Of a DNA stretch of 64,000 nucleotides, positions 1,013 through 62,298 are shown piece after piece. A program made the position numbers and the translations under genes. Origin of the DNA: Isurus oxyrinchus. Lineage: Eukaryota. The first letter of the stretch is position 1, and every line of letters begins with the position of its first letter. The notes under the pieces were generated by a model, which saw only the letters and a program-made list of their open reading frames with translations, had not been told where the DNA came from and made no database searches. The DNA lies in NCBI GenBank assembly GCA_026770705.1, contig JANJGN010000041.1, forward strand, positions 3,844,001-3,908,000, written 5' to 3'.

Positions 1013-1082
1013 ATGGGAGAACTGATACTGCACCAGATAGAAGCCATTTACTATCCTATTCTCGCGGCCATTGGTGTTCCTG
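1013..1082 (+). CDS. Coding exon 1 of an intact GPR139/GPR142-like class A GPCR (MGELILHQIEAIYYPILAAIGVP)
   Basis: ATG at 1013 (aagATGG), 23 codons plus 1 nt, then the donor G|GTAAG at 1082/1083. It supplies the first half of TM1 that is missing from ORF 8874..9911, and the phase matches the acceptor at 8973. Confidence 0.9.
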
Positions 1083-1639
1083 GTAAGAGCATAAATACTA
1101 CCATTACCGGCATAGATGCATGTTGACGTTTTTCTCAAACGCTGGTTCCAATAACATGACGTCGTTTCTTTACTGCTGGGGAGCATCAAAGCAGTGATAT
1201 ATGTTTAACCATAACGATAACAGATTTCTTCCTGCTGCTTTACTTTATACTCGGTGGTATCCACTGCTGATAACCTATTATTGCTTTATTGAATGTTATG
1301 TCACAGGGTGGGCTCTACAATAATTATCATCATCAAGCACAAACCGAATTTCAACTTTTAGAAAATACAATCTCTGAAAATCTGTGCAGGAGAAAATTTG
1401 CATTCTGCAAAATTCTGCTTGAAATACTTGAACCTTTTGTTCATGATTTTCATCAATTTTCCAATATTTAGTGGAACAGAATCCCTGAAGAAAACATATG
1501 CTTATTACCACAGCGATCCTTTTGCAAATCTGGATGCAGAAAGGATATCGGGAAGTCTGGCTGAAACACATTACCGTGTGTGCTGAATACATTCCGACTG
1601 TCTATTGAAATACATTCATTTCTGCAGCCTCATTTATTG

Positions 1640-2025
1640 AGCACCTCAATAAATTTACATGAAGTGTAGTCACTTAAGTAATGAAAAAGATGACAGGCAA
1701 TTTTTGTTCCGGAAGCTTCCACAAGCAGCAAGTTGATAATGACCAGATGATCCTTTTTTGTGCTTTAGCAGAGGTTTAAATAGTGGTCATGACGCAAGGG
1801 GCTATGACAATGTTGTTCAGCGAAATAGTGGCATGGAATCTTTGACGTTTAACCTGTGAATCGAATTGACATCTGTTCTGAAAGTTATTACATCCAATAA
1901 TGCAGAACTACTTCACTACGGCAATGGATAATTAGCCGAGAATTTTGATCTCAAGAACTTACGCCGGACTTAAGTAATCAAACATCTATCTCAGCACGTG
2001 GTTTGCTAACTGAGACATAAGTGGT
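1640..2025 (-). mobile_element. DeuSINE (SacSINE1/AmnSINE1-like), decayed, in GPCR intron 1
   Basis: Reverse complement resembles the Deu domain as recalled: gaagtgtagtcac...gataatgaccagat...aaatagtggcatggaatctttgacgt. Confidence 0.7.
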
Positions 2026-2249
2026 CCGATTTCGGAAGACGTACGCTCCCCGAGTAGATATCTGGTTCTCATTATTCTGCTCATTTCAATTTCTAGCCCT
2101 GCACTTCCTGCTGTTGAAAACGCTGCTTCAAAATCTAACTGAATTACACTGAGAATTGGAGTGGAGTGATAGTAAGAATTGTCGGACTGCCCTGTGGCTT
2201 TGGGAAACTCACATTGTCACGATACATGGTGGCCCTGACAGAGGGCCAG

Positions 2250-2760
2250 AGGAGCATAGGAAATACGAGTAGAAGTCAACAATTTGGCAGCACGAGGGTG
2301 CTCCACTGCTCAAGTATACCATGGCTGAAATTATGCCTCCGCGATATTCCATGCATTTCATACCTTTGTGTGCATTTAATATTTAGAATTCGGTTCATCA
2401 GCACTTTCAACATATTCAAAGACTGCCCGTCAGCCGAGGTTTCCGTATATAAGTTGGAACATTTAACCTTACCTGAGTGATGAAATTCTTCCTCATCTCA
2501 GTTCCAAATTGCAGACCTTTTATTCTGATATTGCTTTTCCTGGTTTTAGACACACCCGCTAGATGAAACATCCATTAAAGATCTACACCGCTGAAACTTA
2601 TAAGAATGGTGAATGCTTCAGAGAGATCACTTCTGATTGGTAAAAGCTCCAGAAAGCAGAAGATGAGTCTCGTCAATGTCTCCACACAGGATAACGCCAG
2701 TTAAGTACCAGTACCCAAGAAGTATTCTGTTTAACATTCCTTATCGCAGAGCTAGAACAA
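2250..2760 (-). mobile_element. CR1 LINE 3' fragment
   Basis: Starts with the reverse-complemented CR1 tail (cataggaaatacgagtagaagt...) and includes gaaattcttcctcatctcagt, similar to the copies at 42430 and 43868. Confidence 0.6.
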
Positions 2761-3639
2761 CAACTAATGAAATCTACACCAAAGGAGTAAAGTAGAATGT
2801 TTGAAAGCACCACAAACATCACCATAAAGAATCCACATGAAAATTACAAAGTTGGTTATACGCTGGGCTTTGGTTACAATTTGTGGCTGTGCACAAATCA
2901 GCTCCAGCTGATGGTCCACAGTCCCTTGTAAATGCAGATTTTTTAGTTCTTTATCAAGGTGAATCCTACCCCATTTAGCACAATGGTTGCATCACAAAAT
3001 TGCGGTGGATGGAAGCCCCGATATGAGGGCGGAATTAGTCTGTACGAGGACCATGCCCAGGTCAATCTAATCAAGCATTGAATAGACAGATGGACATTTA
3101 GTGGGCAGGTTGGTGGAGCAAATTCAATAAGCTTTTTGCACCTGGTTCTTTCCCTGACCACCTGCCAAAGACCCTGTCTAGCACTTAACTTTATGACTCT
3201 GCCAGCTCGGTCATTAGTGGAGCTACCAATCCTTTCTTGCTCACAGACAACGAGGTCCCCGACGTAACTCACTTTTTTTTTCTTGTCACTCCCCAAAACG
3301 TCGGCCATTAATGATCATTAATTCATCCGCTGAGGGGAACGGTAGGTGGTCACCAGGAGAGGACATTCATTGCCCATGTGATGTCATGAGATTTCATGTA
3401 ATTACCACGTGCTCTGAAATGGTGCACACTGAAAGTGTTGCAACATGGTGCTTAGGAAAGCAGTAATGCAATTGAGCACAAGAAATTGGATGGTTGATTC
3501 AACTTTTACATAAGATTATTTCACTCAGATGTTTGCTGATGATTGATAAGAACTTTAAAAGCAGTAAGAGGAATTATTCAGTTAGGAATAAAAAGCTTGA
3601 TTCATTAAGTTTAAGAATATTTGCAAATCAAGAAGTCTT

Positions 3640-4310
3640 CTTTGTCCAGGATTAAGTCAATATCCTTGAAGTCTCTTGGAGCGTAAATCATCTGGACAGG
3701 TGTAGCTTATCCCATCACACTCCTGATTTGTGTATATCAGATGGAGGAAAGGTTTTGTAGAGTAAGGAGTTTCATTGCTCAACATAGTAAGCTCAGATTC
3801 TGACCAGCCCTTTTAGTCGCAATTTCTTGTCAATGGTTTTTCCAAGGATGTTGAAAATGGGGCCTGAAGCCTGTACATCAGCCTGTTTCTTCAGTCATTC
3901 CTTCAATTCAAGTGCTGAGAATCGCATTGTATAAAGACTGGCATCTGGGATGCTTGTCATCCATAGGAGGAGATCGGAATGGTGCATCCACCCGTTACTT
4001 CAGGGTGAATGTGGCTGCAAGTTCTACAGCCATGTATATGCAGTGGTTCGCTGCACTCCACAGTCATTGCCGATGGGGATATTGGTGGAAGCGGTCCAAA
4101 AGTGAGGTGCAGAACTTTCCACGACCATTGAAGTCTTGTGTGACAGGACTTCAGAGCTGAGCTATCGTTATTTGCTTGGAGGATGATGGAGCTCTGTCTC
4201 TCTCATGCTGAATACGCTGTTTTGCCTGCAAGTAGCCCTGTCTTACAATTCACCCGGTTAAGCCCTGTAGTTAGGTATGATCGCTGCTGATGTGGACATA
4301 TGACAGATGT
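3640..4310 (-). mobile_element. CR1-clade LINE ORF2 fragment (second family)
   Basis: cccatcacactcctga matches the motif at 54531-54547 (RSVMEY region of the RT C-terminus). A separate plus-strand tail of the same family follows at about 4330-4610. Confidence 0.5.
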
Positions 4311-6428
4311 TGACAAAGTTCCTTCATTTGTGCATTTGACCTCGAAAGCCTGGAAGGACTAGTGCAGAAGTGGCATGGGAACACTATTCGTTAGAAAATC
4401 CTTTCCAAGTCACACACCAAGCTGACTTGGAGAGACATAACATTTCCCTGACTGTCACTGGATCTAAAACCTGGAAATCCACCGCTCGAAGCATTGTGTC
4501 TGCACCAGCTTGACATGGACTGCAACATTACAAAACCTTATTTTCAACGGGGATTCGTGAAAATGGAAGTAAAAGTGCAATTCTTGTCAATGTATCCAAA
4601 GAAAAGAAAATGTTGCATGATGACGAATCTATGACTATTGATAGCCTTTTTGTATTGAAATGACGGCCCTGGCTGCTTCTTCTGTTCCCACTCAACAAAG
4701 ATTATCTACAAAATCAATGTTTAAATACGAATTATATCTGGAGTACACTGGCCCCTAACTGAGAACGTATATTTTGATTTCAGTCCTCAATATTAAATCT
4801 TAAACCAGAAGGATTGCCTGGAATTTTCGTCCACACATCGCCCCCTCGCGTCCCAAGCCCCAAATTCCCCACTCTCCAACAGCCATCGCCCACAAAAATG
4901 CCGAATCCGCGCAAAGAACATTGACTTGCATCGTGTATGATGACGTCACGTACTTGAATCTCCCAGATGCAGCTGGAGAACAGGCGGGCCCACCTTTTCC
5001 AAGTTAGTAATTAGCAAGTTATTGAGCTTGTGTATGACACAATCATATGTTTTTTTTCATTGGTGCTCTGCACTTACCGTGGCCCAGAGGAGAGAGAAAA
5101 AAATATTTCTGGGCAGCTACCATCAGGCGAGTATCGCGAGGAAGACAAGTTATGCCTCCGGGACCATGATTGAATGTAGCAACGGCTTGTGCTGGTGAAG
5201 CCTTCATGTTTACTTTTCAGGTTTTTATTTTTTGCCTGAGCTTTCAGGGAAAATTATTTTTTGAAAATCAGTTTCTGAGAGCAAGTGATCTTGACCTTGC
5301 AGCCATACCGACTTGCTGCTTACAGTATTACTCTCTGCCACATGCTGTTCAGGCTTTCACTGCCGATTGGACGTGTCCCCACTTTGCATCACTCAATGCC
5401 TCCTCCAAGTGGGAATTTAATGAATTGCGGAGCGGGAGATGGTCTAAGGGAGGGTGAGTAGGAAAGAGCTAATTTTGCATTTCTCCAATCTCATGCTGCC
5501 CCCAAATGTAAAATCCAGACCGCTCTCTACTTATTGTATTGTTTCTTAATGATCTTAAATCACGTTTAGCGGTTTGAACATGCGCCGGAAGATTTCTGTC
5601 ACTTCTCTAGAGTAACTGTTGCTGTCGAGCCTGCAGCAATGTGCCATACACACAAACACACTTCAGTGGATCACACTCGGAGTAGTGTTCGCCACAGCAT
5701 TCACAAATTCACTGAAATGAATTAATCCTTAATGATCTGTTTTGAATGCAAAATATGCCATAGAAAATTGTTGTTTTGTTCTTAAATTGCGAATATAACA
5801 TTGCTGTTAAAGTGCTATGGATTTGGGACCGTGGAGGAAACTCCATTGCTCTGTCGTTCTTCACACTCAGGTAACGAGTCTGCAGAAACGACACCAAGAG
5901 GCCCATGAACTGAAGTGCACTGCACCTGCTCCAGGTTCCTTTTCCTAAACACCAAAGCAATAACAGGTCAGAAGCAGATTGCAGTTGCAGAGAGCAATGG
6001 GTCCTTCTGTCGCGTTTATACATGTTGATTTCTCTAATTTATTTATCAGGGAATAATGTTCATAATATATTTGATGACGGTATTCTTAATTTGCTAGCTA
6101 AATAGTTGATAATGGATTGAATAGGTCACTATTTCTTCAGTTGATCATTGAATGGTTCATTTCTGGGGCATTTCAACGTTCAATTCGGAGGAAAATTCTG
6201 GGAATATACTGATAATTTATTGAATAATAGTTTTGATAATTAATTTGTTCAAACATTGGCTGCTTCATTACACAATTGTTTAAATTACTGTATTTTTAAA
6301 GCCCTTTCCTTGTTTACAGTGCTGGCCAGCAGAGTTTCAAGTGCTGATAATTTGACTAAGAATCTTTGTATAATTCACAATAGTGCACGGATAATTATGC
6401 CTCTCAGTTTAAATGCACGTCATTATAG

Positions 6429-6430
<2 letters not shown>

Positions 6431-6460
<30 letters not shown>
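6431..6460. repeat. (AT)15 microsatellite
   Basis: Direct observation. Confidence 0.95.
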
Positions 6461-6463
<3 letters not shown>

Positions 6464-8973
6464 GTTTGATCAAATAATAATAGGTATTGGGTAAATGAAG
6501 GTCAATTTTAATTTTTAACAATTACTTCAAGCTGCAATTGTGTCAAAAAAGCTTTGATTAATAATGCTTCCATCTTTTCCAGTGTATCCTACATGGTCAA
6601 CAGAAACTCAAACCTTAATTTTTTATCAATTGCCTGGCGTTTTCAGTGTTGTTTTTGATTTTCTTTGACAGCTCCATTAAGGCAATGACTGTTTGCTGCT
6701 TGCATTCGAGTTAGAAAACTGTGAATCGAAGGTTGCCAAGTGGGCTGTGTATTTAACGCAAATAGGTTTTTTTTGTTTGTGTGGTCAAAGCTTGCCAACT
6801 TACAATCTGATCCAAAAATGTAAAGACGCTGTTTATCTTTATCCGACTAATTTGTTTTTCATCATTCAACGTTCATCTGAATCATTAACCAACAACTTAC
6901 TGAAATAATATGATCCAAAATGTTACTTCACCACCCCGTTAACAGACGTTCAATGCATTGTTTTTCAATAAGTTCAAGTTTGCGAAAACTCTCCGTTCAG
7001 TCTGCACCATGTTGCATAGCCATGAAACCAGTTGGTACTTGAAATAACTCTCTACCTACTCGTCCCATTATTTTGAGAATGTGCATTTTCCATTCCCTAT
7101 TCTGTGCCTCACGAATCTGACCAGAGATTTCAGTTGGAAGGCGATTCAGCACCATTGTCACAGCCATGTCATCCTATCCTATAGCATCACCACCTGAACT
7201 ACAACGAAAATTTCAGCAGCGATCCGATTTCCTACTTGCGATAATAATTCAGGCTAGTGTTATTTACCTTGCTTTAAAATGCAGGAATTAATTTAGTAAA
7301 TGTGCGCATCAAGTTGCTACATATCTGGCAGCTAAAAATTAGATTCACTTAGAAAATCTATTCTTCAAAATTCAAGTGGACCTTTACTAAGTAAACAACA
7401 GAAATCGTAATGCAATCTGTGAGTCACGTCAATTTCGCTTGAATTGTATAAATCATTTAATTTAATCCGTATAAATGTCTGTCTGAAGTTAATCTTCTGC
7501 AGAATAATGCACCATTGAATATCTTGGCCTATTCCCTAAAAAGGATCCTGCATTTTGAAAAAAAAAGCGATATGGATTTTAACAAATAAGGCAACCGTTT
7601 TATGAGCCTGCCCAATCTGAAATGAATTCAAACATGGGGCTGGTAGGAGTTAGGTGTTTATCGTCACGTATTGGACAATTTGTAATTTCATTTTTCTGAA
7701 CATCTATTAGTCTACAGAATCAAATCGATGTGCCCTTCACTGTCAATCGTTATCCCGCACTTTGTGCCCAGCAAAAATCAATTTTCAGCTTCACATTTAA
7801 AATCACTTCACACGGATGCTGTGCTTGGGACGCAAGCGTCTCCCTCCTGACCTTTCAGCAACTAAGTGATTTGTTTTGCAGCCGATCAATTATTGGGAAC
7901 TCTGTCCTGTCCACTTGGAAGCAAAACACTAGTTATGACGTCGCTAGGATCACATCTCCGAATGGCTCAGTAACTTTGCTTTGCAAGAAATGTGCCCCTA
8001 TGGCCAATAAATATTGCACACTCAATCTGATAGCAAAGTCACCCTTCCCAATCAGCAATTAAAATGCCCTCTTTTTCAGTACTGAATGCACCCATTCTGC
8101 GTAGCAATGTTGTTTTACTCGTTCTGCAATAAATTAGCGATTCATTCACATGAAATATTCACGATGCCCAGCCAGCATATCAATCGCAGTTTACTCAGTC
8201 TAACGTAAAGCACATGACTGATCAGATCTCATCCTTGAATAAAACTTCTCCCTGGGAACCTGCATAAGAACGTCACCTAATACTGATTGCCATTGTACCA
8301 CACCTCTGATGACACCTGTGTAAAATTGCGTTCAGCCTTATCTATGCTGGTCTTTTATGTAGCTCAGTGACCATTTTCTGGTCCTTTGCCTTTACCATTT
8401 CATCTTTACTCTCACAAGCGTTCAAAGTCTGTTCGTGCCGCTGGGCAATATCTTACCTTCAAGCTGCAGGTCCTGTAGCACAGTAAACCTTCCCAGTACT
8501 TATTCACATCTATAGACCACCCAGCACGCATTTCACCACTCCCTCCTCCAGTGTATATCTCTTCCAGGCCGAGATTCCATTTTGTGCATTAATTTCTCCA
8601 CTTCACATTGTACCAACACATAAGAGTTGACTCTGTAGACCTCCCCCTTGCCTTTTAATATTCACCATTCCCATTTGTTTGTGCGTAATCAATTTTTCCA
8701 GGTCACATTCGCCCTCAGCAACCTCAATCGTTATTATACAATTGTTGTCCAGTTTACATTGAAGATGTTGCTTTCAAACGACGAAGTATCAAATGGTGTT
8801 TATCGTCCCTATCAAATTTAAGTAGGTCCAGTTTACATTTAGAACATGCTCGCCTCGGAAAGCAGACTGTGCATTGTTTGGTCAAATGAACGATCCTTTG
8901 CTGCAACAGGAAGAAAATTATTCACGTTCATCCATGTCATCTATCTCCTGCTCTCTCTATCCCTCTCTTACAG

Positions 8974-9911
8974 TTAATGTTGTTGCGATTGTGATTCTTT
9001 CACGAGGAAAATGTGGCCTTTCCAAAGGTATTACCCAGTATATGATCGCCATGGCTGTTGCAGATCTCCTGGTTGTTTGTGCAGAAGTCATACTGAAGAA
9101 TATATTGGAAATTTATTTACCTGTTTCATTTCTGACCATGAGCACAATGTGCAATCTAACTGTGACTCTGACTTATGTAGTCACATCAGCCTCTCTCTGG
9201 TTCACAGTGGTGTTCACCTTCGATCGTTTTGTGGTCATATGCTGTAAGAAGCTACGAAAAAAATATTGCACGGAGACAACAGCGGTAGCTGTCATATCAG
9301 TAGTGAGTGTGTTGAGTTGTTTGATAAACATTCCCTGGTACTTCGCATTTGAACCTGCGTATATAATGGACAATGTAAATCATGGTTGTGTCGTAAAACA
9401 GACATTTTTCATTTCTGCTGAATGGGCCGTATTTGACATGTTTACACTTACATTGACCCCATGTGTTCCATTCATTCTAATTTTGCTGCTAAATGCTTTG
9501 ACGGCAAGACGTATTTTGGTGGCCAGTAAAGTTCGCAGGGGTCTCCGCAGTTGCAGCAATGGAGAACATCACAAGGATTCTGAAATAGAAAGCCGAAGAA
9601 CATCCATTATTTTACTCTTCAGTATAACCGGCAGCTTTATATTGCTCTGGACAACTCCGCTTATATATATTTTCTCACTGCGTGTAACCATCACATCAAA
9701 TTCTGGCACAAATGAGCTTGAGTCAGTTGGATCCATGCTTGGAATCCTCAGTTGCTGCACAAATACATTCATTTATGTGCTGACACAGGCTAAGTTTAGG
9801 GAGGAGCTGAAGAATGGAATGCAGTACCTTCTGAAACTGTGCGTAAACATAGGCAAATTACAGCTGCGAACACATTGTTCTTTACAGGAGGACAGAAACG
9901 TTGTGCCCTGA
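8974..9911 (+). CDS. Coding exon 2 of the intact GPR139/GPR142-like GPCR (TM1 end to C-terminus); spliced product 335 aa
   Basis: Polypyrimidine tract ctctctctatccctctcttacAG ends at 8973; G+TT gives Val in frame. Motifs: N in TM1, AMAVADLLVV (TM2), C at the top of TM3, FTFDRFVVIC (DRY-like), ECL2 Cys (HGCVV), PCVPFILILLLN (TM5), FILLW (TM6), CCTNTFIY (TM7), helix 8 KFREEL. No stops or frameshifts. The ORF-track start at 8874 is intronic. Confidence 0.92.
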
Positions 9912-18744: not shown

Positions 18745-21220
18745 TAAACACACCTGAAAATACTCTGCTGGACTGGCAACTTCTGCGGAGAGGAAGACAA
18801 TTAACGTTTCGAGTCCATAGGACTCTTCAACAGACCTGAGTAAAAATAGTAGAGAAGTGAAATATAAGCTGGTTTAAGGCGGGGGTGGGGGGGGGGGGGC
18901 GCGGTGACCAGTCGAAATGGATGGATGGCCAGTGACAGGTGGAGATAGACAAAAGATGGCATAGAGAAAAGTACAAAAAGGTGTTGGCGGTGGTGGTATA
19001 ATCTAAGGAATCTGCAAATTATGGGTAGAAAGCAGAAGAAGCAAGGTACAAATAGTGGGGGTAGGGAGGGGTGAAGGAATCAAAAAAGGCCAAAAGGTAG
19101 AGATAAAAGAATAGGTGGAAATACATTTAAAAATACTGGAAATAGGTGGTAAACTAAAAGTCTATTTAAATTATTGGAAAAAGGGGGTGGATCGGAAAGG
19201 GGTGGTGTTGGTAGAGAGAGTTCATGATCTGAAATTGGTGATCTCAATATTCAGCGGAAGGCTGTAAAGTGCCTATTCCGAAGATGAGGTGCTGTTCCTC
19301 CAGTTCACTGGCCCTAACCGCCTCCACTTCACCATGGACGTTCAATCACTCAACACCTCCATTCCCCACCGGGATGGCCTGATGGCTTTCCAATTCTTCC
19401 TCGAACAGAGGCCCGAACAATATCCATCCACAAGTACTCTCCTCCGTCTATTTGATTTTGTTCTGACACAGAACAATTTCTCCTTATACTCCTCTCACTT
19501 CCTGCAATTAAAAGTTGTGGCTATGGGTAACCACATGGGTCCTAGCTATTCCTGTCTTCTTTTGGGGTATGTGGAACATTCATGGTTCTAGTCCTACTCT
19601 GGCCACTTCCCAAAACTTTTTCTCTGGTACATCGATGATGCCTTCGGTGCTGCTTCATGCTCTCGCCTGGACTTGGAAAAAAAAATATTAAATATGCTTG
19701 CAATTTACACCCCTCCATCATTTTCACATGGTCAATCTCGGACACTTCCCTTCCAATCCTTGACCTCCCTGTCTCAATTTCTGGTGTTTCACTGTACACC
19801 AATATCCATTATAAGCCTACCGACTCCCACTGCTACCTTGACTACAGTTCCTTACACCCCGCTTCCTTTAAGAGATCCATCGCCGTCTGTCAGTTCTTTC
19901 ACCACCATCGCATCTGTTTTGATCATGTCACTTTCAGAAACAGTTCCTCTGACATGTCCTTCTTCTTCCTTAAGCGAGGATTTCCACCCATGATGGTAAA
20001 AAGGGCACTCAACCGTGTCCAGCCCATCTCCCGTGCATCCGGCCTCACATTTTCCTCTCTGTCACAGATACATGATAGTGTCACCCTTGTCCTCACTTAT
20101 CAACCCAACAGCCTTCACGTTCAGAGTATCATGCTCGGCCATTTCCGTTAACTCCAACATGATGCCAGCACCAAACACATCTTCTCTTTACCTCGCCCGC
20201 CGGCATTCCAGAGGGATCATTCCCTCTTTGGCACTCTGGTCCACTCCTCCTTGGCCTCCTAAATCACAGCCCCTCCAATGGCACCTTCCCATGGAACTGC
20301 AGAAATTGCAACACCTGCCAATTTACTTCCCCTCTCCTCACCGCCCAAGAGCCCAAACACTCCTTTCAAGTGAAGCAGCATTTCACTTGCACTTGCCTCA
20401 ATTTGGTCCACTCCATTCATTGCTCCCCATGCGTTTCCACTACATTGGAGAGACCAAGCACAGACTGGGTGACTGCATTGAACAACAACTTTGGTCTGTC
20501 TGCACGCATTACCCAGACCTCCCTGTCGCATGGCATTTCAACACTCCACCCTGCTCTCATGCCCACATGTACGTCCTTGGCCTGCTGCATTGTTCCAATG
20601 AAGCTCACCACAAACTGAAGGAACAGCACCTCATCTTCCGACTGGGCACTTTACTGCCTTCCGGACTGAATATTGAGTTCAACAACTTTAGATCATGAAC
20701 TGTCTCCTCCGTCCCCACCCACTTTCTGATCCACTCGCACGCTTTTTTTCCAGTAAGATTTACACCTATTTCCTTCATTTTTAAATTTATTTCTATCCAT
20801 TGTGTTATCTCTACCTTTTAGTCCTTTTCGATTCTCTCACCCCACGCAAACCCCTTTCGAGCTATCTGTACCTTGCTTCTCTTGCTATCCAACGTTAAAC
20901 AACGCATTCCGTATATAATATCATCACCTCCAACACATCTTTGTCCTCTTGTCTATAACATCATTTGAATATCTGCACAAATCACTGGCCCTCTATCCAG
21001 ACCTACCTGTCCCAGCGCCTCATACCCCCCCACACCCACCCATCCCCGCCGCTCCTCCACCCCCCATATAACCAGCTTATATTTCACCTCTCTTCTATTT
21101 ATCTTAGTTCTGAGTCATACAGACTCGAACGGTTAACTATGTTCCTCTCCGCAGATGCTGCCTGATCTGCTAGATTTTATTTTTGTTTTGAATTTCCAGC
21201 ATCCGCAGTTTTTTTTCTTT
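18745..21220 (+). mobile_element. 5'-truncated Penelope-like retroelement (RT + GIY-YIG) with an inverted 5' pseudo-LTR
   Basis: RT motifs FTMDVQSLNTSIPH, AMGNHMGPSY, YIDD (19628) and IHYKPTDSHCYLDY; GIY-YIG HYIGETKHRL...PVAWHFN...KEQHLIFRLGTLLPSGLN, stop at 20698. 18745-19308 is the reverse complement of about 20610-21220. Confidence 0.9.
18798..18840 (-). ncRNA. Degenerate minimal type I hammerhead ribozyme core in the Penelope pLTR
   Basis: Minus strand reads CTGTTGA-A-GAGTCC-TAT-GGACTC-GAAACGTT: core CUGANGA with one substitution, 6-bp stem II, GAAA and a palindromic ACGT stem III. Confidence 0.65.
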
Positions 21221-24334: not shown

Positions 24335-24632
24335 TTCCTGAATAGGGAACAATAGCCACGATGGCAAATACATCTACTAAACAGTAGTCCGAAATGGATC
24401 CACTTGGCTTAGTTATTGACGAATCATCTGCAGAAATAACTTTGAAAGTGTAAGATAATCCGCTGTCCCTTGTTTGTACATTTCGCTCTATTGTTCCAAC
24501 ATCGCCTGCATTGTCTTAACATTCGAACTAATTTATCTCAGATTCTGATCCACTTCTGCAACATTCAATTTGATTGGCTTCAGATTCAAACCCATTGTTG
24601 TAACATTTCAATCTATTGATCTCAGATTCAGA
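24335..24632 (-). pseudogene. Orphan decayed exon 1 of a GPR139-like receptor with about 3 copies of the 42-bp repeat
   Basis: Minus strand aatctgagatcaatagattgaaatgttacaacaatgggtttgaatctg...gtggatcagaatctgaga, ending in gccatcgtggctattgttccctattcaggaagt (degenerate PILAxxGVPG|gtaag). Contains stops; no exon 2 recognised. Confidence 0.7.
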
Positions 24633-24728
24633 TTTGTTCAGGCAAATTGGGTAAATGTTGCTAGAAAATGGAAATTCTACGGCAAAGTGGAATCCCACTG
24701 GCTTCCGTGGAATGCCGCTGCAGGCCTG

Positions 24729-24799
24729 TCATCCTCAGCAGAGTGGTGAGTATCACCAGCTTCACATGGGAGGCGGGGATTCAAATCACTGACGCGGCA
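24729..24799 (+). pseudogene. Highly decayed tRNA-Asp-like pseudogene
   Basis: ...agtggtgagtatc...gggagg...ggattcaaatc...gacg, in the same flanking context as the copy at 31168. Confidence 0.55.
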
Positions 24800-26834
24800 A
24801 AAAGCCATTATTCAAATTGTGCGCCCCAGAAGGCATGCTCACCATTTTTATTAGCAAATGTGTTTTCATTTCCTGATGAATATCGACATAAAGGGCACAT
24901 CCTCATCAATCCGGACAGAAGGCAGATTTGCAAATATACATCATGAGGAAAGATGTTGGAAAAATTAGAATGTCAAAATCCCCTGTCGGCAAACGGCCCT
25001 TTACCCCATCGTGCTGCCAGCCTCCATCTTGTAGATGTCGCAACATTTACCGAAAATAACTCATCCCAAAGTTTATCGACGGCACGTCCTAAAAAAAAAC
25101 ATGGTTTTGAATCGAGAACTGCATAAGACACAACAGGCATTACGAAAATCGCTAAGGCTGAGGTACTTCACATCCCACCCCCGATTGAGCATCCAGGGCT
25201 AACTGACCACGACACCGTCCAGGCAGGAACACAGCTCCACATCGCCTGTACCAGATGCTGCTGCAGCCTGAAGTACGCTTGTGATGGCCAGAGTGTCAAC
25301 CGACATGTACGCAGTGCGTTTCCAGGAGCTCCAAACTGGTAACAAATATCATTTGAAGGCACGCAAATTCCCATTACTTGCAATCAATAGGAAAAGTAAA
25401 ATCATATTTCAAAAGATACTCATTCAATCGCACTCCGCCCTTCTTTCACGTTATTCCTGACTTTGTACATTCATTATAGCATGTGCACACTTCCCTTGAG
25501 AACATAAGAATTCAAGCAGAAAAAAAAAGCAACAACCTTGCATGTAGTCTCCTCAAAAGGCCAAGGTAATCAAGCGCAAAAAACAAAGTTTCACCAAAAA
25601 TCTTATCAAATCTTTGCTGCCTGAATACTCACTCTACTTCAACTGAAGTTCTGACCATGAAAATGTGCCTGGATTTTGAACGCCGCTCTATAACCTCTCC
25701 AGAATACACTGTGCTTGATGCTTTAATAAACTATTGGATTTCAGCTTTGCCAGCAGCACGGCATACATGGCTTGTTCCTCCCAAGTAACAGGGTCTGTCC
25801 CAAGTGTGACGCACAGAGGTCAAAAATGAAAGCTGAGTGAGAATACCGGTCAATTTTCACAGAAACCCAAATTTTAGGAAAGAAATAAGCGGGCCTGAAA
25901 GTCTATGTGGAAAGAAAGAAATGCTTTACTTTCCGAGTCCGTGGGGCACTTTTTCAAAACTTTCATATGTCAATTTTGTTCGATCATGTTTGTATATGTA
26001 GGCTGTCTTAACTACATTTCTGCACTCCTCTTTAGGCACTTAACATTCAGTCTGAAATGAAAACAGCCTTGTGGAAATCCGATCCAATAGCCTCGTATAA
26101 CACTGCATCAAAACACGCTCTCCACATGTAGTCTCTGCTCCCCTGTCCACATCCCCTTCTTCTGGTCCACACTTCTGCAACAAATAGCGTTCAAGAAATT
26201 TGGGATTTTTAATGCTTCGATCACGTGCCGTGTTTTATGTCTGTGCTGAAAGCTGACCGTGAGAAGTCAACATATTTTATTCCATTTTTCATGGCGCTGC
26301 TAGCGTCCATGGATCCTGCAGCTGCACTAAGCCTTTATCTCTGAAGAGTGACCGAGAAGGATTTAAAATGCAGAGCGGCAAGTGGTGATTGGAAACATTG
26401 CTTCTGATTGGTTTGCTTATGTTACTGAGTGAAAATGAATAAAGAAACGTCTTTCTTTACCGCTTACATGTGAAGTTTTAAATTCGACACACTACATGGT
26501 TTGTGTAGATTATAGAATTAGAGCTGGGAGCGTGGCTGCTGGTGATTGGCGTCTGAATCAAATGGACGACTGGAAATCCTTGCGAATTCTTTGAAAGACT
26601 GTGCGAGTGACAAAATGAGGTAAACAACCGAGGAAGATGGACCTGTGCCTTTGGGCAACGGGAACAACTGACGTCATGTACCGAATTTGAAGAAAAACTA
26701 TGCAATCCCGTTCAAACCGATGGAAGTTAATTGTTTGCATTGTGCAGGCAAACTGTGCAACTATCGCTTCAAAATGAAAACCTGAGTGCAAATTGGAATA
26801 TCACTAGCTCCCTTGGGAAGCACCAGCCGGGCTC

Positions 26835-38219: not shown

Positions 38220-41200
38220 ATGTGTTACAGAGCTGGGGGCTGTCACTGGCATATTAGAGTGGGTGACTGTCACAATGGTTACACAGCTGGTGACTGTAAC
38301 TTCGGTAACAAATTGTGGTGGAGACTGCAGCACTGTTTAAATGGAATAGGGTGCAGGCACTCTGCTTACACAGCTAAGGGCTGTCAGTACAGTGAAAGGA
38401 TGTGGGGACTGTCGCTATTGTTGCTGTGCTAGAGGGTAATCACTATGAAAAACGGATTGGGTGAAATGTTACTCAGGTTAAAGAGCTGGGGAACAGACAT
38501 TAAAGTAATTGATTGGTAAATTGTCCCTCAGGCTACAGAGCCAGGGACCAATCGTTATAGGAATTGATTGAGGAAACCATCGCTCATGTAACAGTGCCAG
38601 AGTTCACTCATGCATTGCATTGGCTGAGCAGACTATCAAACAGGTTACAGAGCAGGGGTCCACACATCATAGCAAATAATTGTGGAGACTGCCACTCAGG
38701 ATACAGATCCGGGAATGGTCACTATCACAATTGATTGGTTAGACAGTCACGTTACAAAGCCAGGGGCCACACACGCATTAAATACATTGGCAAGACTGTC
38801 ACTCAGGTTACAGAGACGGGACCCAGTCACTAAAATAATTGATCGGGGAGCCAGTGACTCAATGTACGGGTTCAGTGGCTGGTCAGTATCGAAATAGATT
38901 GGATTGTCACTCAGGTTATTAAAGAAAGGAACCATCAGAACTCCAAGTGTTTGGCGAGACTGTCACTGAGCTTACAGAGCAGGGGCCAGTCATTCGAGTA
39001 ATTGATTAGGGAATCTGTGACTCAGGTTGCATGCCCGCATGACAGTCAGTATATTAGTTGATTAGGGAGCCTGTCACTTAGGTTAAAGAGCAGTGGAGCA
39101 GTTTGTATAATAATTAATTGATGAAGCTTTCACTCAGGTTACAGGGCCAGGGATTATTCAGGATTGTAATTCATTGGGGAATCTGTCACTCAGGTTAGAG
39201 AGCGAAGGGCCTCTAAGTACCATAACAGTTTGCGAAGACTGTCACTCACGTTACAGACCAGGGCTCAGTCAGTATAGCGATTGATTGTGGAGTCTGTCAC
39301 TCATTTTGCAGTGTCAGTGGTCATTCGGAATCATTATTGTTTCGGGTCGCAGTCAGTTAGTTTATAGATCCGGTCTACTCATTTATAGCAATGGATTGGG
39401 GAGAATGCCAAACATGTTACAGAGCAGGGAGCCTGTCAGTACAGGAATTAAATGAAGGGACTTTCTCCCAGGTTACAGAGGCAGCGGGCAGCACAGTGTA
39501 GGAATCGATTGAAGAGACTGTCACCAAGGTAAACCGAGCCTGGACCAGTCATCGGGAGAATTTATTGAAAAGAATGCCACTCAGATTACAGTGCCAGGGG
39601 CTTGTCAGTAGATTAATTCACTGGGAAGTCTGTCGCTGAGGCATCAAGGATGGGGACCAGTCACAATATTAGTTGATTTGGGAGTCTGTCACCCAGGTAG
39701 CAGAGCCGGGGTTAGTCACTTTTGGAATGGATTTGAATGACTTTGACTCAGATTACAGAGCCAGGGGTCATTCAAGATTGTAATTCATTGGGGAGAATGT
39801 CAATCAAGTTACAGCGCCAGAGGTCATTCTCGATAGTATTTGATTTTGGAGAGTGCCAGTCAGGTTACAGAACTGGGAACAGTCACTAACAGAATTTATT
39901 GCGGAGATAGTCATTCTGAGCCAAGAGCCACTCATGAATGTGTAATTTAGTGAGGAGCCTTTCACGTAGGTTACAGAGTCGAGGCCCAGTCATGACAGCA
40001 ATTGACTGGGGATAATGTCATTCAGGTTAGAGAGTAGGGGCCCACTCAGGAATGTAATTGACTTCGGAGAATATCTCTCTATGCTTGCAGATTCAGTTGC
40101 CACAAGGTATTGTGATTAATTGAGGAGACTGTCACTCTGTTTACAGATCCAGAGAAACTCACTCTGGGAATTGTTTGAGGAAGGTTTCTCTCAGGTTAAA
40201 GAGCACGGGGCCAGGCAATATCGGAATTTCTTGAGGAGACTGTTACTCAGGATCCAGAGCCAGGCGTCAGTCAGAAGAGTAAATTTATGAAGAGGCTGTG
40301 ACTCAGGTTACAGAGCCCGAGCTCAGTCAGTATCGGAATAGATTGGGGAGACTGGCACTCAGCTAACGGTGCAGGGACCTTGTCACTAAAGGAATTCATT
40401 GAGGGACTGTCACTCAGGTTACAGAGCCGAGGACAGTCACAACATGAATTGATTGTAGAGACAATCACTCAGGAAACAGAGCCATCTATCATTAGCGACC
40501 ATAATTGATTTGAGGAGGCTGTCACTCAAGTCTTTGAGCAAGGCACCTGTCAATATTCTAATTGATTGGGGAGCCTGTCGCTCCGGTTAAAGGGCATGGG
40601 CCCAGTCAATAATTTATTTGATCGGGGAGGCTGTGACTTAGGTAACGAAGCCAGGGGCTTGTCTTTATAGTAATGGATTGGGTGGTCACTCAGGTTAGAG
40701 GAACAAGGGCCCGCCAGAACAGCAAGTGTTTGGAGAGAATGTCGCTCAGGCCTCGGGGCCAGTCAGTACAGTAACTGATATGGGAGCCTCTCACCCAGTT
40801 TAGAGAGCCTGGGACCAGTCTGTGTAGGAATTAATGGATGAGGCAGCCACACAGGTTGCAGAGCCAGGGATAAGTCCGAATTGTAATTGATTGGGGAATC
40901 TGCCACTCAGTTTAGGGGGTGAAGAGCCTCTTCGCACAGCAATAGTTTGCAGAGACTATTACTCACGTTACAGAACCGGGGCAGAGTCAGTGCAGTGATT
41001 GATTGGGAAAACATTCACTAATTTGACAGAGCCAGGGCCCTGTCAGTAAAGTAATTGATTCAGGACACAGTCACTCAGGTTACAGAGCCGGGGGCCATTC
41101 ACGTATTGCAATTTATTAGGGAGACTGCCAATCAGGTTATAGAGCAGGGAGACTGGCTCTGCAGGAATTGATTGAGGACACTATCTTTCAGGGTACAGAG

Positions 41201-41235
41201 CCAGAGGCCTGTCAGAATAATAACTTGGGAATCAC
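38220..41235. repeat. 56-bp satellite/minisatellite, about 50 diverged monomers
   Basis: Consensus by eye GACTGTCACTCAGGTTACAGAGCCAGGGACCAGTCAGTATAGTAATTGATTGGGGA; CACTCA recurs at 39131, 39187, 39243 and 39298. Confidence 0.92.
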
Positions 41236-50690: not shown

Positions 50691-51241
50691 ACTTCTGGTG
50701 TACCCAGTATATCACCCTTCTTCTCCTGAGATGTTTAAATATCAACCATACTCCCACAATGCACCTGTTAAATATCCCCACATCTCCGATGAACCTGGGA
50801 TAGAGACAATCTCCTTGTAGCTGTTATATTGCCCTCTTGCCCTTTTGTGCCTAGAATAAACTCGAAGCCCATGTACCTATCTCATCCCTCCGTTGGCCCG
50901 TGATATACTTCACCCCTCGTTGCGCTGGCTGCTTTTGTTGATGTCCAGGTTGCAATGACAACCATGAGTGGGCGGGGCAAGTGATGACTCTTCGTTTCAC
51001 TCTCTGTGCTCCAGTCAATCTGGGCCTCTGTGCATGGCTGACAAGCAACACCATGTGGGACAGACTCTGTCCATTTTCTCTTTCAGCATAAGGACAGCAC
51101 AGCCCCAAACCCCTCTGCTGCTGCCAACCTAACAACAGCCACTCTAACAATGGAAATACAAAATAAATTTGAAACATAATGGACATTCGCAGTCAGTCAT
51201 TGTTCAGATCGTTGCACGGATTGATGCATTCGAGGAACGGG

Positions 51242-52090
51242 TTATCTCAGCACATTCGTTAAGTGCTGCTTGAACTTAGGCTGGGTCACGGCATAAATCC
51301 CAGTGTTTGTGCAGCAACTCAGGAGCTGCAGCATGAAACCCAATTCCATCACAATTTAAACTATATCAACTTGCATATTCCTCAAGAACGATATTCAGTC
51401 TCAGATAGAAACAACATTAATATTCCCAACAACAGGATGAAACGAGATAACGAGCAGTGAAATAATTGATTTCCTCCTACATTCCATCTCTGGATCTCTG
51501 GCACTATCCCTGCTGCTTTGAGACCGGAGTCTCTTTGCGGGGACAGCTTTTTAATAAAATGTGTCTCAGGGTGAGATCATTGAGCAGCAGAATCAGGAAA
51601 AATGCGACACGGGGTGAGAATGTAATGGAGAAATTCTATCGTTACCCAGGCCCGAGAGAGCTGAAGAGAAATAGTTACATCACAAAAACCATGAGGCGTT
51701 CCTCAGTAAACAATAACCTGTGAGCATAATATACCAGGTGATCTTCTTTAAACAGCTCAGAGCCGTCACTGTTCCCAGAATCACAGCCGCCATTTTCTCC
51801 ATACAATATTTACTGTTCAGATTCTGGTGACAAATAGCGACAAATCCATAACAGGTGAGAGTGACTGTGAACCAGACAGAACAGCCACTGGCGGAATATA
51901 GGAGGACGGTATGGACATTACACAAACTAAGAAAATACAGGATATTAAACCCTGTAATGTGTCTCAATATCAGGTCCAGGATTACGACCAATAGATCCGC
52001 CACTGACATGGCCACCAGGGAGCGAGAGGCACATGTGTAAACACCACACTTTCTCCGAGAAACGATGACCAATTGGCAACAAAATAACCA
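51242..52090 (-). pseudogene. GPR139-like GPCR pseudogene, exon 2
   Basis: SRRKCG...VAMSVADLLVVI...CSVWFTVTLTCYGFVAIC (DRF lost); +1 frameshift in a T run at about 51685, then CDVT...AWVTIEFLHYILTPC, further frameshifts, DPEMECRRKSII, and LQLLSCCTNTGIYAVTQPKFK to a stop at 51242. Confidence 0.9.
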
Positions 52091-53025: not shown

Positions 53026-53285
53026 CAGGGACACTATTTATAGCCAGGATGGGATCGTAGCAGGCTTAAATAACTAAAGGTATCCATATGATGCGCCAGT
53101 ATAATGTATACGATCATCTTCAGCAGAAAGTAAGTTAAATGCTGCAGTGAGGCTCCTGGTCATTGTTGTAACATTTCAATCTATTGTTGTCAGATTCAGG
53201 CCCATTGTTGGAATATTCCAATCTATTACTTTCAGATTGTGAACCATTGTAGTAACATTCCAAGCCATTGTCCTCAGATTGTTAT
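53026..53285 (-). pseudogene. GPR139-like GPCR pseudogene, exon 1, with 3 copies of the 14-aa repeat
   Basis: NNLRTMAWNVTT MVHNLKVIDWNIPT MGLNLTTID*NVTT MTRS ... VI*ACYDPILAINSVP G|gtaag (donor at 53025); two in-frame stops. Confidence 0.85.
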
Positions 53286-55329: not shown

Positions 55330-56420
55330 GTTTGTGTTTGTGCACATAACCTCTTGTATGTCGTTTTTGTGTATGTTTGCACATAACCACTCGTTTATTG
55401 TTGTGTGTATGTGTGTACCTAAAATCTTGTTTCTTTTTGTGTTTATGTATGTCCATAACCTAATATATGCAGTTTGTGTGTATATTCGTACATAACCACT
55501 TGTTTATTGTTTGTGTTTATACATATTTACTGTTTATGTGTATACATGTACATCAACAGCTGCTTATTGTTTGTGTGCGTGTGTGTACGTAAGCACTTGT
55601 TATCATTTGTGCGTATGTGTTTGACTTGTTTGCTATTTGTGTGTTGCATGTCCAAAACAACTTGTTTATTGTCCGTTTGATGTGTGTACATAAATACATG
55701 TTTACTGTTTGCTGTTGCTGTGTGCGTACATAACCTATTTCTACATTTTGAATAATGCATGAACATGACCACATGTTTATGTGTGTGAATGTGTGTACAT
55801 AACTCGCTTACTTTAGTGCATAACCAACTGTTAATAGTTACTGTTTAAGCGTGTACATAATAACTTATTTAAGTTTGTTTGTATGTGTGAATAACCACTT
55901 ATTTATTGATTGTGTTCATTTGAGTACATAACCACTTTGCTATTGTGTGCGTGTGCACGCACATAACCAGCTAGATATTGTATGTCAGCATGTGTCTACA
56001 TAACCATTTGTTTATTTATTGTGTGCATATATGTACATAACAGGTTGTTTGCCGTTTGTGGATGTGTGTGTGCCTAACTACGTGTTTGCTGTCTGTGCGC
56101 ATGCATACGTAATCACATGGCTATTGTTTGTGTTTATGTGTGTACATGAACACTAGTATACTCTTTATGTGTATGTGTGTTCATTGCCACCAGTTAATTG
56201 TTTGTGTGAATGTCTGTTACATTGCCAACTGTTTATTTTTTGTATGTGTGCTGTGAAGAACCAATTGTTTATTGTTTCTGTGTATGTGTGTTTATAACCA
56301 CTTATTTATTTTATGTTAATGCGTACCTAAACACTTGGTCATTGTTTCTGTGTATTTGTGCATGCAAAAACATTTATTTATTGTTTGTTTGTAAGTGTGC
56401 ACATGGCATTTGTTTTTTCA
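55330..56420. repeat. TG-rich ~36-37-bp minisatellite (TGTGTGTATGTGTGTACATAACCACTTGTTTATTGTT-like)
   Basis: acataacc-like cores at 55344, 55381, 55417, 55453, 55490 and onward. Confidence 0.85.
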
Positions 56421-58261: not shown

Positions 58262-58400
58262 AGGACCTGTGCTAGTTTGAAGCTCTGTATTTGTATCAAA
58301 TGTTGAAATAGTTTCAGTGTCTGATTCAGGCTCAGGATCTGTGTTGGTGTCAGAGTCTAAATTAGGAACAGAACCTGTTTCAGTTTCAGGTTCTGAATTA
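58262..58400. repeat. Short degenerate block related to the 18-bp repeat (minus frame SEPETETGSVPNLDSDTNTDPEPESDTET)
   Basis: ORF 58214..58420 on the minus strand; gtttcag periodicity. Confidence 0.5.
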
Positions 58401-58504
58401 ATTACACGCCTGCAGTTCATATTGGGGTTTATACAGGATTACGCCCATTTGCTTGTGCTATTCAATGGCTGTATTAGAAACATGGTCAGTAATAGATTCA
58501 GTGA

Positions 58505-59200: not shown

Positions 59201-59489
59201 GGGTGTTATCAGCTTGAGACAATTCACTTGCGGCTCGGTTAATTCTGCTCTTGATTCAGCACCATGCAAGGAAGATCAGCCTCAGGCACGAATAAACTGT
59301 GCAATACAACAGTCATCATGACATAAAGTCCCTGGTCTTATTAAGGGCCCTAGCTTCCGATGGCTTCGATTAGCACAGATTCATAGAGTCATACAGCAGC
59401 AGAAGAGGCAACCTGGCCATCGTTTCTGTACTATTTCAATATTCTCTGCGTGTATTTATTATTTTCCTAGGCCCCTGCAGGTCTCAGCG

Positions 59490-60750
59490 TTTAATATTAG
59501 CTTTCAGGTCTTCTGTTTCTTTCAGTGATTTTAGGAGTTTAGGAGCCCATATTTTTCCTCGGGCAATTGTAATTTCAGGGGTCAAAACTATTTTCAGAGC
59601 GGTAATAAATTCAGGTGCTGTCTTATGTTCAGAGGCCATCTCAGTTTCACCATCAATCACAGTCTCAGGTGCGGCATTAGTTTCAAAGCCACTGTTGCAC
59701 TCGATGTATTACTCCTATTTCGTGTCTGCATTACTTTCAGATTCTCTATTAGTTCTAGGTCCAGAATTAGTTTCAGGGCCTCTATGAGACTCAAAGCCTG
59801 TAACAAAATCTGGGCTTGTATTAATTTCAGGGCCTCTAAGAGTTACAGAGCCTGTAATAGTACCTGGACCTGTATGAGTTTCAGAGCCTGTAATATTATC
59901 TGGACCTGTATGAGTTTCAGAGCCTGTAATATTATCTCGGCCTGTACTACTTTTGGGGCCTGTATGAGTTTCAGAGCCTGTAATAGTATCTGCGCGTTAA
60001 TGAGTTTCAGTGCCTGTATGAGTATCAGAACGTGAAATAGTTCCTGAGCCTCTATTTGTTTCAGGGCTGCATGAGTTTCAGAGCCTCTAATATAATCTGG
60101 GCCTGCATTAATGACAAAGCCTCTATGAGTTTCAGAACATGTAATAGTTTCTCGGCCTGCATGATTTTCAGAGCTTGACATAGTTTTAGGATCTTTATTA
60201 GTTTCAGGATCTGCTTTATTTTCATGGTTTCTGAAAGTTTCAGGGACTGTAATAGTTTCAGGATCTGTATTTTTTCCAGGGCCTGTATTAGTTTCAGGTT
60301 TTATGTTAGCTTCAGGATCTGAATTAGTTTCAGGGTCTGTTTTCAGTTCAGGGCCTCTCTGAGTTCCAGCTTCTGCATTAGTTTCAGTGTCTGCTTTAGG
60401 ATCAAGGCCAGAATTCGTTTCATGGTGTGTATTACCTTCGAGGTCTCTATTACTGTCATGGTTTTTATTAGTTCCTGGTTCTGTATTAGCTTCAGGGCCT
60501 GAATGAGATTTGGAACCTGTCGTAGAATTAGGGACTTTTATGGTTTCAAAAAATGGTACTGGCACTCTGGTCCTATATTATTATATTTTGTCTGCATCTG
60601 TTTCAGGGACTTTGTTAGGTTCGGGTCCTATATGAGTTTGAGAGCGTACGTGAGGTTCAGATCCTGTAACAATACGCGGGACAGTATTAGCTTCAAGGCC
60701 ATATGAGTTTCAGAGCCATTAATAATTTCTGGATGTGTATTAGACTTAGG
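59490..60750. repeat. 18-bp tandem repeat (TGTATTAGTTTCAGGGCC consensus), about 70 diverged units
   Basis: Direct periodicity. Minus frames read GPETNT or ALKLIQ; plus frames read CISFRA or VLVSGP. Confidence 0.9.
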
Positions 60751-60879
60751 GAAAAAAATTAATCGGTGAGTGTGTTATTTTGCGCCCTTGCATCCATTAG
60801 CGCACAGTTAGGTCAGCATCTGTCTCAATGAACCTTCCCCAACAACTGGAAACATGACATACGGACAAAATGGCCTCTG

Positions 60880-61830
60880 TTGGCACACACTTATAGAATC
60901 AGACAGTTTAGCAGGAGGTCATTTTTCCCATCGTTCCTATTAACACTCTTTGCAAGAATTATATAATCAAATTCATCTCTCTCCGACACCACCAAGACCC
61001 TTCCATTACCTGAGCAAATATCCACTGTCTGACCACAGGCAATTATATGGTGAAAGTCACTGATATATCTCACTCTGCCAGGCTTTCAGGCAGCGTATTC
61101 CAGATTTATCGGCCCCTCTCCGTTTCTTTGTCAATCACTTTAAAACATTGTCTGCTGGTTACTGACCCATATTCCAGGATCACCAGTTTATCGTTATTTG
61201 CTCCATAATATCTCATCAAGATTTCAAGTGTCTCTATTAATCCCCCAATTTTCCTGATCTGCTTTAAGGAAAACAGTTCCAACTTATCTAGTCTCTCCAT
61301 GCAATTCAAATCCCTTTTCGGTCTTCCAATTCCAGTAATATTCTTCTACCCCCGGTCCAAGTCCCTAGCATCCTTTCTGAAATGTCCTCCCCAGAATTAG
61401 AAATAATACTGCAGCTAACGCTTCACCAAGACTTATAGTTAGAACATTTTGGCTCTGACTTTCTTACTTTTTCTAAACTCTGTTTCGATTTATCAATAAA
61501 TAATATACTGTAATTTTAATACTCTAAAAGGATTGCACTATCACATACAACTACTTGGTTATGCAATCCTAATCTATTTATTGAACAGCTCCCAAATTTG
61601 CCCGGTTTTAAACTTTGCACAACTCTCTTTGTACTTTTCCTTACCACAAACACAATTGTACATCTCAGCCAGACCGCGTGAATGTACCACTTTCGTGCAG
61701 TGCAAGAAAAACTGGATTGAAATGGTTAACTGAATCTGTTTGTTCAGTGGCTGGAATTAATGGCAGTCTCCATGGATCCTAATTACCTCACTGGGTGCCT
61801 CCCACTGCTGTTAAAAATGGCTTTGCTTCC
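60880..61830 (-). mobile_element. CR1 LINE 3' end
   Basis: ORF 61106..61309 reads ERLDKLELFSLKQIRKIGGLIETLEI. Confidence 0.75.
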
Positions 61831-61907
61831 ATCTGTTACATCATCATGTTAGCAGGAGAATCAGCTCTGCCACTAATATGCAATTGCAGCTTCAAAAGGA
61901 GGATAGA

Positions 61908-62159
61908 CTATAACAGAATCGCAGGACAATAGATTGGAATCTTACAATAGTGGATCAGAACCCGAGAGCAATAGATTGGAATGTTCCAACGTTGGATAAT
62001 AATTTGAGAACAACAGATTGGAATGCTGCAACAATGGATCAGAACATGAGAAGAAGACATTGGAATGTTACAACAATGGATCAGAATCTGAGAACAATAG
62101 ATTTCAGTGTTGCAGCAATGGATCAGAACCTGAGAACAATGGATTGGAATATTGGAACA
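61908..62159 (+). repeat. Six 42-bp units, consensus ATGGATCAGAATCTGAGAACAATAGATTGGAATGTTACAACA (MDQNLRTIDWNVTT)
   Basis: Units start at 61908, 61950, 61992, 62034, 62076 and 62118, with no indels. Confidence 0.92.
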
Positions 62160-62298
62160 ATGAACAGGAGTGTCAGCGATGCACTTTACATGCTGTCTGT
62201 AGAAAAAGATTGGTTGGATTTGAATGAAAGGTTCTATTTTGTCATTTTGACTATTCAAGCTGGTTATTATCCCATACTCGCCACTTTTGGTGTACCTG
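62034..62298 (+). CDS. Coding exon 1 of another GPR139-like GPCR; exon 2 not seen in the window
   Basis: First in-frame ATG at 62034 (acaATGG); the frame is open from 61914 and ends TIQAGYYPILATFGVP G|GTAAG, same phase and position as exon 1 at 1013-1082. Functionality cannot be confirmed without exon 2. Confidence 0.75.

Follow-up and report, generated by a model that had tools for sequence, protein, structure and literature searches.

A receptor family of more than a thousand loci in Isurus oxyrinchus, related to GPR210B and possibly chemosensory

A stretch of 64,000 nucleotides from the shark Isurus oxyrinchus (assembly GCA_026770705.1, contig JANJGN010000041.1, positions 3,844,001 to 3,908,000 of the forward strand; hereafter the window) carries two intact (loci A and D) and two broken (loci B and C) copies of one gene family of predicted G protein-coupled receptors (GPCRs). 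The family comprises more than 1,000 loci in the genome of this shark and has spread by segmental duplication of blocks carrying several genes, accompanied by frequent decay. Sequence comparisons place it as a distant cousin of GPR139, of which it is neither an orthologue nor a copy, and as a neighbour of the orphan receptor GPR210B. The signalling face of the receptors is conserved and their pocket hypervariable, and this family of sharks and rays could well serve chemosensation, with a different polar small molecule or peptide for each copy.

The loci of the window were detected by six-frame translation and tblastn, which revealed two exon-2 loci and three exon-1 ends; the pattern of exon end and donor occurs three times in the window and never in 200 shuffles and is thus not due to chance. 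The spliced protein of locus A is stop-free, consists of 335 amino acids and is predicted to be a two-exon class A GPCR. Membership in class A (rhodopsin) is indicated by a match to Pfam 7tm_1 of 77 bits (cut-off 30.5), and an AlphaFold2 model of exon 2 is a class A seven-helix bundle (predicted local distance difference test score 71.5) with Foldseek template-modelling scores of 0.7-0.8 to peptide receptors; Foldseek, however, does not separate class A receptors from one another, and GPR139 ranked ninth. Exon 2 of locus A matches that of locus B with an E value of 3e-23. Exon 2 of locus D is open and starts 321 nt past the window end (G000:C41:3908321, C41 being the contig of the window), which makes locus D an intact gene encoding about 387 amino acids. 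Locus B exon 2 shares 73% DNA identity with that of locus D, interrupted by nine indels; stops and frameshifts are found in both B exons, and there is no AG at the homologous acceptor. The original prediction of four paralogous loci therefore stands for A as an intact gene, B as a two-exon pseudogene and D as an open exon 1, but locus C, which was taken for an orphan exon 1, is a repeat remnant without GVP motif and donor and with no exon 2 found. Likewise, the phase-1 intron after GVP, which had been assigned to all four loci, could be traced by its donor at three of them, with locus B ending in SVP. The strong divergence of the exon-2 pair was confirmed; however, it is not restricted to the extracellular loops. 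Loci A and D share 47% protein identity, and the differences between A and B/D are spread throughout the sequence because these loci belong to different old subfamilies.

The size of the family was estimated across the 4.98-Gb assembly, in which the window lies on a 7.09-Mb contig. A 17-nt motif of the seventh transmembrane helix (TM7) has 2,235 exact matches genome-wide versus 13 for the control, and an independent 26-nt TM3 motif has 1,276 versus none, while the exon-1 donor pattern was dropped as a copy counter (2,049 matches versus 1,676 for the control). The family motif was present in frame in 40 of 40 fetched TM3-motif loci, which were taken unranked from the first 100 listed matches on large contigs, and exon 2 is open in 21 of them (17 by a strict motif rule and four on inspection). 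Among the TM7-motif loci examined, 12 of 20 are open (7/12 and 5/8). Extrapolation for the TM7 motif alone gives about 1,300 open exon-2 copies and, with only 8/26 and 12/40 loci carrying that motif, about 7,000 loci including fragments; both are rough counts that uncollapsed haplotypes may have raised, and for most loci exon 2 alone was checked. Two queries directly established a minimum of 239 distinct full-length stop-free exon-2 matches (108 of 133 scored loci for the A query, 131 of 132 for the D query), the scored loci being the best-scoring ones and thus biased to intact copies. The idea of a lineage-expanded, clustered birth-and-death family is hence borne out on a far larger scale than first guessed, and the number of copies is anything but small. 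Within 504 kb around the window, 26 exon-2 loci were found, six open and 20 broken, but only one in 150 kb on another contig; locus density therefore varies. A-like and D-like genes lie 52.6-55.3 kb apart at three places on C41, where they are 97-99% identical including their flanks, and in six A copies 97% identity extends over 3.9 kb. At the other extreme, the median identity among 17 open copies is 47%, which corresponds to many deeply split subfamilies.

Among solved structures, GPR139 is the best match to the family (E 1e-8), and the original prediction had regarded the genes as GPR139/GPR142-like. The I. oxyrinchus genome, however, contains one GPR139 (C15) and one GPR142 (C22), both separate from the family, and three further single-copy genes on large chromosomes, referred to as L070, L149 and L150. 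Orthologues of L070 occur in chimaera, coelacanth, lungfish, sturgeon, gar and teleosts, and those of L150 in coelacanth, teleosts, crocodile and gecko. Three orphan subtypes of fishes and coelacanth, two of them named GPR210A and GPR210B, are listed in the accessible text of Rinne et al. 2019 (PMC6504862). Most probably, L070 corresponds to GPR210A and L150 to GPR210B, because the coelacanth accessions H3AX25 and H3B118 differ by 1,393, the same spacing as that of the two Ensembl ids of Rinne et al.; the names are thus matched by accession arithmetic. L149 (G000:C21:15048074-15048952; with P0523, P0463 and P0379) is an unnamed third GPR210 subtype found in this shark, gar and caecilian, and a lamprey gene groups on the GPR210A side of the tree. 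L150 (G000:C9:126713203-126714090, minus strand) has an in-frame TGA in extracellular loop 2 (ECL2) here, whereas its coelacanth and teleost orthologues are open.

The exon structure points to the same group of genes: GPR139, GPR142 and all three GPR210-type genes have their exon-2 acceptor where the family has it, ahead of the TM1 Asn and in the same phase. The phase-1 intron after the TM1 G-x-P motif is common to the wider GPR139/142/210 group; the exon-1 donor was found for L149, while exon 1 of GPR139, GPR142, L070 and L150 was not found within the 10-20 kb upstream stretches searched. In the final tree (25 rows, LG+C20, rooted with somatostatin receptors and without a nearer outgroup of protostome or TRH-type receptors), the family is monophyletic (support 100/100), sister to GPR210B (93/94) and placed inside the vertebrate GPR210 clade (98/97). 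Amphioxus relatives follow next (90/87), GPR139 and GPR142 stand apart (99/99), and GPR210B forms a group without the family (100/99); an earlier tree had united the family with GPR210A, GPR210B and the third subtype (99/96). A family profile scores GPR210B at 162 bits, the other GPR210 types at 59-123 bits and GPR139/GPR142 at 63-77 bits. L070 had been considered as the sister gene, a candidate that was dropped once L150 was found. A position inside the GPR139+GPR142 clade was rejected twice by the approximately unbiased (AU) test (p=0.0205 and p=0.015), so that the genes are not GPR139/GPR142 in the narrow sense, although they do belong to the wider GPR139/142/210 group. A grouping with shark GPR210B alone was also rejected (AU test, p 0.006), which points, tentatively in view of the long stem, to an ancient paralogue and not to a branch of recent origin.

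The conservation pattern was analyzed in 135 members, 120 of which are database matches skewed to two species. D2.50, R3.50, both disulfide cysteines, W6.48, N7.49 and Y7.53 are kept in 133-135 of them. Twenty-six pocket positions, numbered by our own generic scheme from anchor residues and fixed after small alignments had been viewed, vary with a mean of 2.16 bits, which exceeds the means of the 147 TM positions elsewhere (0.96 bits, p 2e-7) and of the other upper-TM positions (1.48 bits, p 0.002). The residues of the GPR139 pocket are retained to a different extent: Arg6.51 in 19/135, Asn7.39 (N7x38) in 30/135, H5x43 in 62/135, F3.33 in 40/135 (any aromatic residue in 80/135) and W6.48 in 135/135. 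In sequence order (3.33, 5x43, 6.48, 6.51 and 7.39), locus A has Y/T/W/P/S, with Pro replacing Arg6.51 and Ser replacing Asn7.39. Arg6.51 is critical for the action of Trp and Phe at GPR139, according to the available parts of two studies (PMC8807744, PMC5430874). The loss of most GPR139-type residues, together with a tree position outside GPR139/GPR142, argues that the receptors are probably not activated by Trp or Phe, the ligands that the original prediction names for mammalian GPR139 and GPR142.

Purifying selection is apparent at several levels. Exons are 89-90% and introns 76-80% identical in three paralogue pairs, and the ratio of non-synonymous to synonymous substitution rates (omega) is 0.58 across 53 open A-type copies, which is below 1 (likelihood-ratio statistic 2dL 57.6). 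The intracellular half is more constrained (omega 0.44) than the extracellular half (0.77; 2dL 42.5, one degree of freedom). Site classes, which were fitted with our own likelihood code that reproduced the M0 likelihood, place 48% of sites at omega 0.11, and M2a is preferred over M1a (2dL 39.2) with 4% of sites at omega 3.5, including the pocket positions 6.55 and 7.43. Positive selection at individual sites is only partly convincing from these alignments.

Homologous proteins are numerous (2,264 at E<=1e-10), and the best 120 of these 2,264, for which organism names are known, are all from sharks, rays and skates, most of them family members under the automatic name 'probable GPR139'. The closest named proteins among the matches listed are from lamniform sharks. 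Proteins of batoids (rays and skates) interleave with several shark subfamilies, with five changes forced by starred branches, and the repertoire therefore predates the split of sharks and rays. Full-text literature searches, with subscription papers mostly outside their coverage, retrieved no description of the family, and none is given in the main texts, as far as accessible, of shark genome papers (PMC11979771 and its preprint, PMC11406177, PMC7677710, PMC10620051, PMC8455134). The term GPR139 is absent from the supplements of PMC10115646 and PMC13188829, and the supplement of PMC13200729 contains the true orthologue only. The sequences are thus already present in public catalogues under automatic names, but the family itself is apparently undescribed, while its organization is of a known kind.

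What is the function of such a family? Two features of chemoreceptor repertoires were found, namely a large, clustered birth-and-death family and a variable pocket on a conserved signalling core. All copies may share their G-protein output, while their ligand input would have diversified, and such a constant output with varied input, in a very large family of clustered genes with rapid turnover, suggests, from sequence, the design of a sensor repertoire similar to that of the OR, TAAR, V2R and MRGPR families. Each receptor might then sense a different polar small molecule or peptide in olfactory microvillous neurons, chemosensory cells of gill or skin, or somatosensory neurons, perhaps with a choice of one receptor per cell. 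In three of four runs, presumed-RNA contigs from a related organism include matches to D-type paralogues at a depth of up to 29, which is a weak hint of transcription and carries no tissue label. It is more doubtful that this undescribed family, which would have arisen in sharks and rays from an old paralogue of the peptide-type orphan GPR210B and rivals mammalian odorant receptors in size, supplies much of the chemical sense of these fishes.

Several observations weigh against a chemosensory repertoire of this origin. The sister branch to GPR210B (93/94) is below the threshold at which the tool stars a branch, and the stem of the family is long (1.74). Broken loci predominate near the window (20/26), and the duplications take in entire blocks that are still 97-99% identical, so that passive amplification fits as well. 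The positively selected sites are not enriched extracellularly (5/9 versus 118/283, Fisher p 0.50), changes at sites 136 and 182, which are among the strongest, are of CpG type, and gene conversion may have contributed to the signal. Omega of the 26 pocket codons alone is 0.73, which is not significantly different from 1 (2dL 2.7); thus, relaxed constraint explains part of the variation. No RNA dataset was listed with a match to locus A exon 2, and four presumed-RNA runs contain repeat matches and one short exon-2 piece but no splice joint of locus A, although such blanks are not evidence. Finally, the accessible text on a catshark brain-plus-olfactory library reports no GPCR among the 50 most specific genes, and V2Rs are missing from these genes as well (PMC11979771).

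Mostly passive amplification, in which a few functional receptors would lie in a cassette prone to duplication, with thousands of copies made and most of them drifting with little function, would also account for the co-duplication of A and D genes with their flanks, the satellites flanking the genes, the rather high omega of 0.58 and near-identical contigs, some of which may be uncollapsed haplotypes. However, this explanation has little probability in view of the 48% of sites at omega 0.11, the better conservation of exons than introns, the different constraint on the two sides of the membrane and the deeply split subfamilies that are kept in both sharks and rays. A multiplication of true GPR139/GPR142-type nutrient sensors for Trp and Phe is highly improbable: the best solved-structure match, the shared intron, the invariant W6.48 and the frequent aromatic residue at 3.33 speak for it, but single GPR139 and GPR142 genes persist in the genome, AU tests reject a joint clade, and Arg6.51 and Asn7.39 are mostly lost, in locus A to Pro and Ser.

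Two further explanations were considered. Surveillance of microbial or damage-derived peptides by leukocytes, mast-like cells or epithelia, comparable to FPRs or MRGPRX2, would leave the same signature of conserved core, variable pocket and rapid turnover as a chemosensory repertoire, but is unlikely overall. Known immune GPCR families have tens of members, not more than a thousand, and no immune gene was detected among nine long open reading frames (ORFs) of the window that were scanned. In favour of this role, the wider clade binds peptides (PMC8557429, in the sections available), and cartilaginous fishes are reported, in the accessible text of PMC8455134, to lack MAS1 and its relatives, which leaves such an immune function open. 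An even smaller probability is assigned to receptors of reproductive tissue or germ line involved in sperm chemotaxis, in the oviduct or in the detection of pheromones by tissues other than the nose. Tandem families that evolve rapidly often show a gonad bias. In the catshark, several V2Rs are testis-enriched, as stated in the available part of PMC11979771.

Compared with its relatives, the family shares with GPR210B and GPR210A the phase-1 intron, the disulfide between TM3 and ECL2 and the TQxKFR motif of helix 8, and a KCG[LM]SK-like intracellular loop 1 is found in GPR210A. In contrast, the GPR210 types are single-copy genes on large chromosomes that are conserved across jawed vertebrates and keep Arg6.51, whereas the family has more than 1,000 loci, a variable pocket and an invariant W6.48 and does not branch from within shark GPR210B. 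GPR139 and GPR142, class A receptors activated by Trp/Phe and by MSH-type peptides, resemble the family in their membership of the wider clade, intron position and phase, the lack of Pro at 7.50 and W6.48; they differ from it by only 24% identity to locus A and by Arg6.51 and Asn7.39, which the family has mostly lost. In addition, the family possesses a disulfide that GPR139 lacks and has no Pro6.50. Tandem clusters, birth-and-death evolution, many pseudogenes, a conserved signalling face and a hypervariable pocket are also typical of ORs, TAARs, ORA/V1Rs, V2Rs, FPRs and MRGPRs, which show no homology to the family beyond the rhodopsin fold; unlike these, the family has two coding exons and an origin in a peptide-receptor clade. 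The Srw family of nematodes is an expanded chemoreceptor family from the protostome peptide-receptor clade. GPR210A has a Pfam Srw match, and Srw-bearing clusters occur among the Atlas neighbours, but exon 2 of loci A and D matches 7tm_1 only, and the expansion is independent of nematode Srw. In the accessible part of PMC8557429, the protostome supergroup of MIP, FMRFamide, myosuppressin and proctolin receptors is the sister of deuterostome GPR139/142.

The catshark has two OR, six OR-like, three ORA, three TAAR and 32 V2R genes (PMC11979771, available text), and GPCRs have been described as relatively scarce in cartilaginous fishes (PMC8455134, in part). A family of over a thousand loci misnamed 'probable GPR139' changes the count of shark chemoreceptors and GPCRs whatever its tissue, and the proper comparison gene for ligand work is GPR210B, not GPR139. 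If the receptors were sensory, they would directly explain the detection of many chemicals by sharks despite the small number of their classical receptors, and would provide an independent case of a peptide-receptor clade becoming a large sensor repertoire; a chemosensory role would overturn the view of cartilaginous fishes as chemoreceptor-poor.

Table 1. Receptor loci and associated repeats in the window (position 1 is the first nucleotide of the window).
Feature	Position	Strand	Basis or remark
Locus A exon 1 (coding), from Met through GVP and one further base	1013..1082	+	Sequence; phase-1 GT donor at 1083
Locus A intron, GT..AG, 7,891 nt	1083..8973	+	AG ending at 8973; splicing predicted
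Locus A exon 2, open, from the end of TM1 through the C-terminus	8974..9911	+	Sequence; Pfam 7tm_1
Locus C, remnant (~150 nt) of D-type exon 1 N-terminal 42-bp repeat	24487..24633	-	Repeat common to B and D
Locus B exon 2, pseudogene, D-type subfamily	51208..52087	-	Stops, indels, acceptor lost
Locus B exon 1, 42-bp repeats, stops, frameshifts, SVP end	53026..53268	-	GT donor at 53025
18-bp-based satellite, ~1.8-2.5 kb upstream of locus D exon 1 donor	59766..60501		Also upstream of another D-type exon 1 in the cluster
42-bp (2 x 21) repeat, partly coding, marks D-type exon 1	61926..62162	+	Sequence
Locus D exon 1, open, GVP end, phase-1 GT donor at 62299	62034..62298	+	First in-frame ATG at 62034
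Locus D intron, 2,022 nt in all	62299..64000 within the window	+	Sequence; acceptor at window-equivalent 64320

The two subfamilies in the window differ in their N-termini, which are very short in A-type genes, while D-type genes encode a variable number of 14-residue repeats with N-glycosylation sequons, found at locus D (61926-62162) and at 10 other sites in 504 kb. The 18-bp-based satellite is located upstream of two of three D-type exon 1 copies examined (window; C41 at about 3.70 and 3.93 Mb), and at locus B a 37-bp repeat (55335-56399) takes its place at a similar upstream distance; a 26-bp satellite is absent upstream of the eight exon-1 copies checked. The locus C remnant is directly adjoined by an array (24634-33932) in which incomplete copies of a 2.1-kb unit, 66-77% alike, follow one another in tandem. 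Another copy of the unit, at C41:3818083-3820150, likewise has a minus-strand remnant of the exon-1 repeat next to it, and the two therefore look like a duplicated pair. A degenerate 56-bp satellite (38465-41207) occurs only once within 504 kb. An inverted repeat of ~550 nt (18775-21162, 71%) flanks ORF fragments that lack a Pfam match and, judged by their motifs, presumably derive from a decayed retroelement; nine other long ORFs of the window had no match in Pfam. Five of five A-type exon 1 copies on C41 have a (TATC)n-type tract of 70 to 2,200 nt located 3-5 kb upstream, which for locus A falls immediately before the window start. These five copies also share a conserved stretch of about 350 nt ahead of the ATG.

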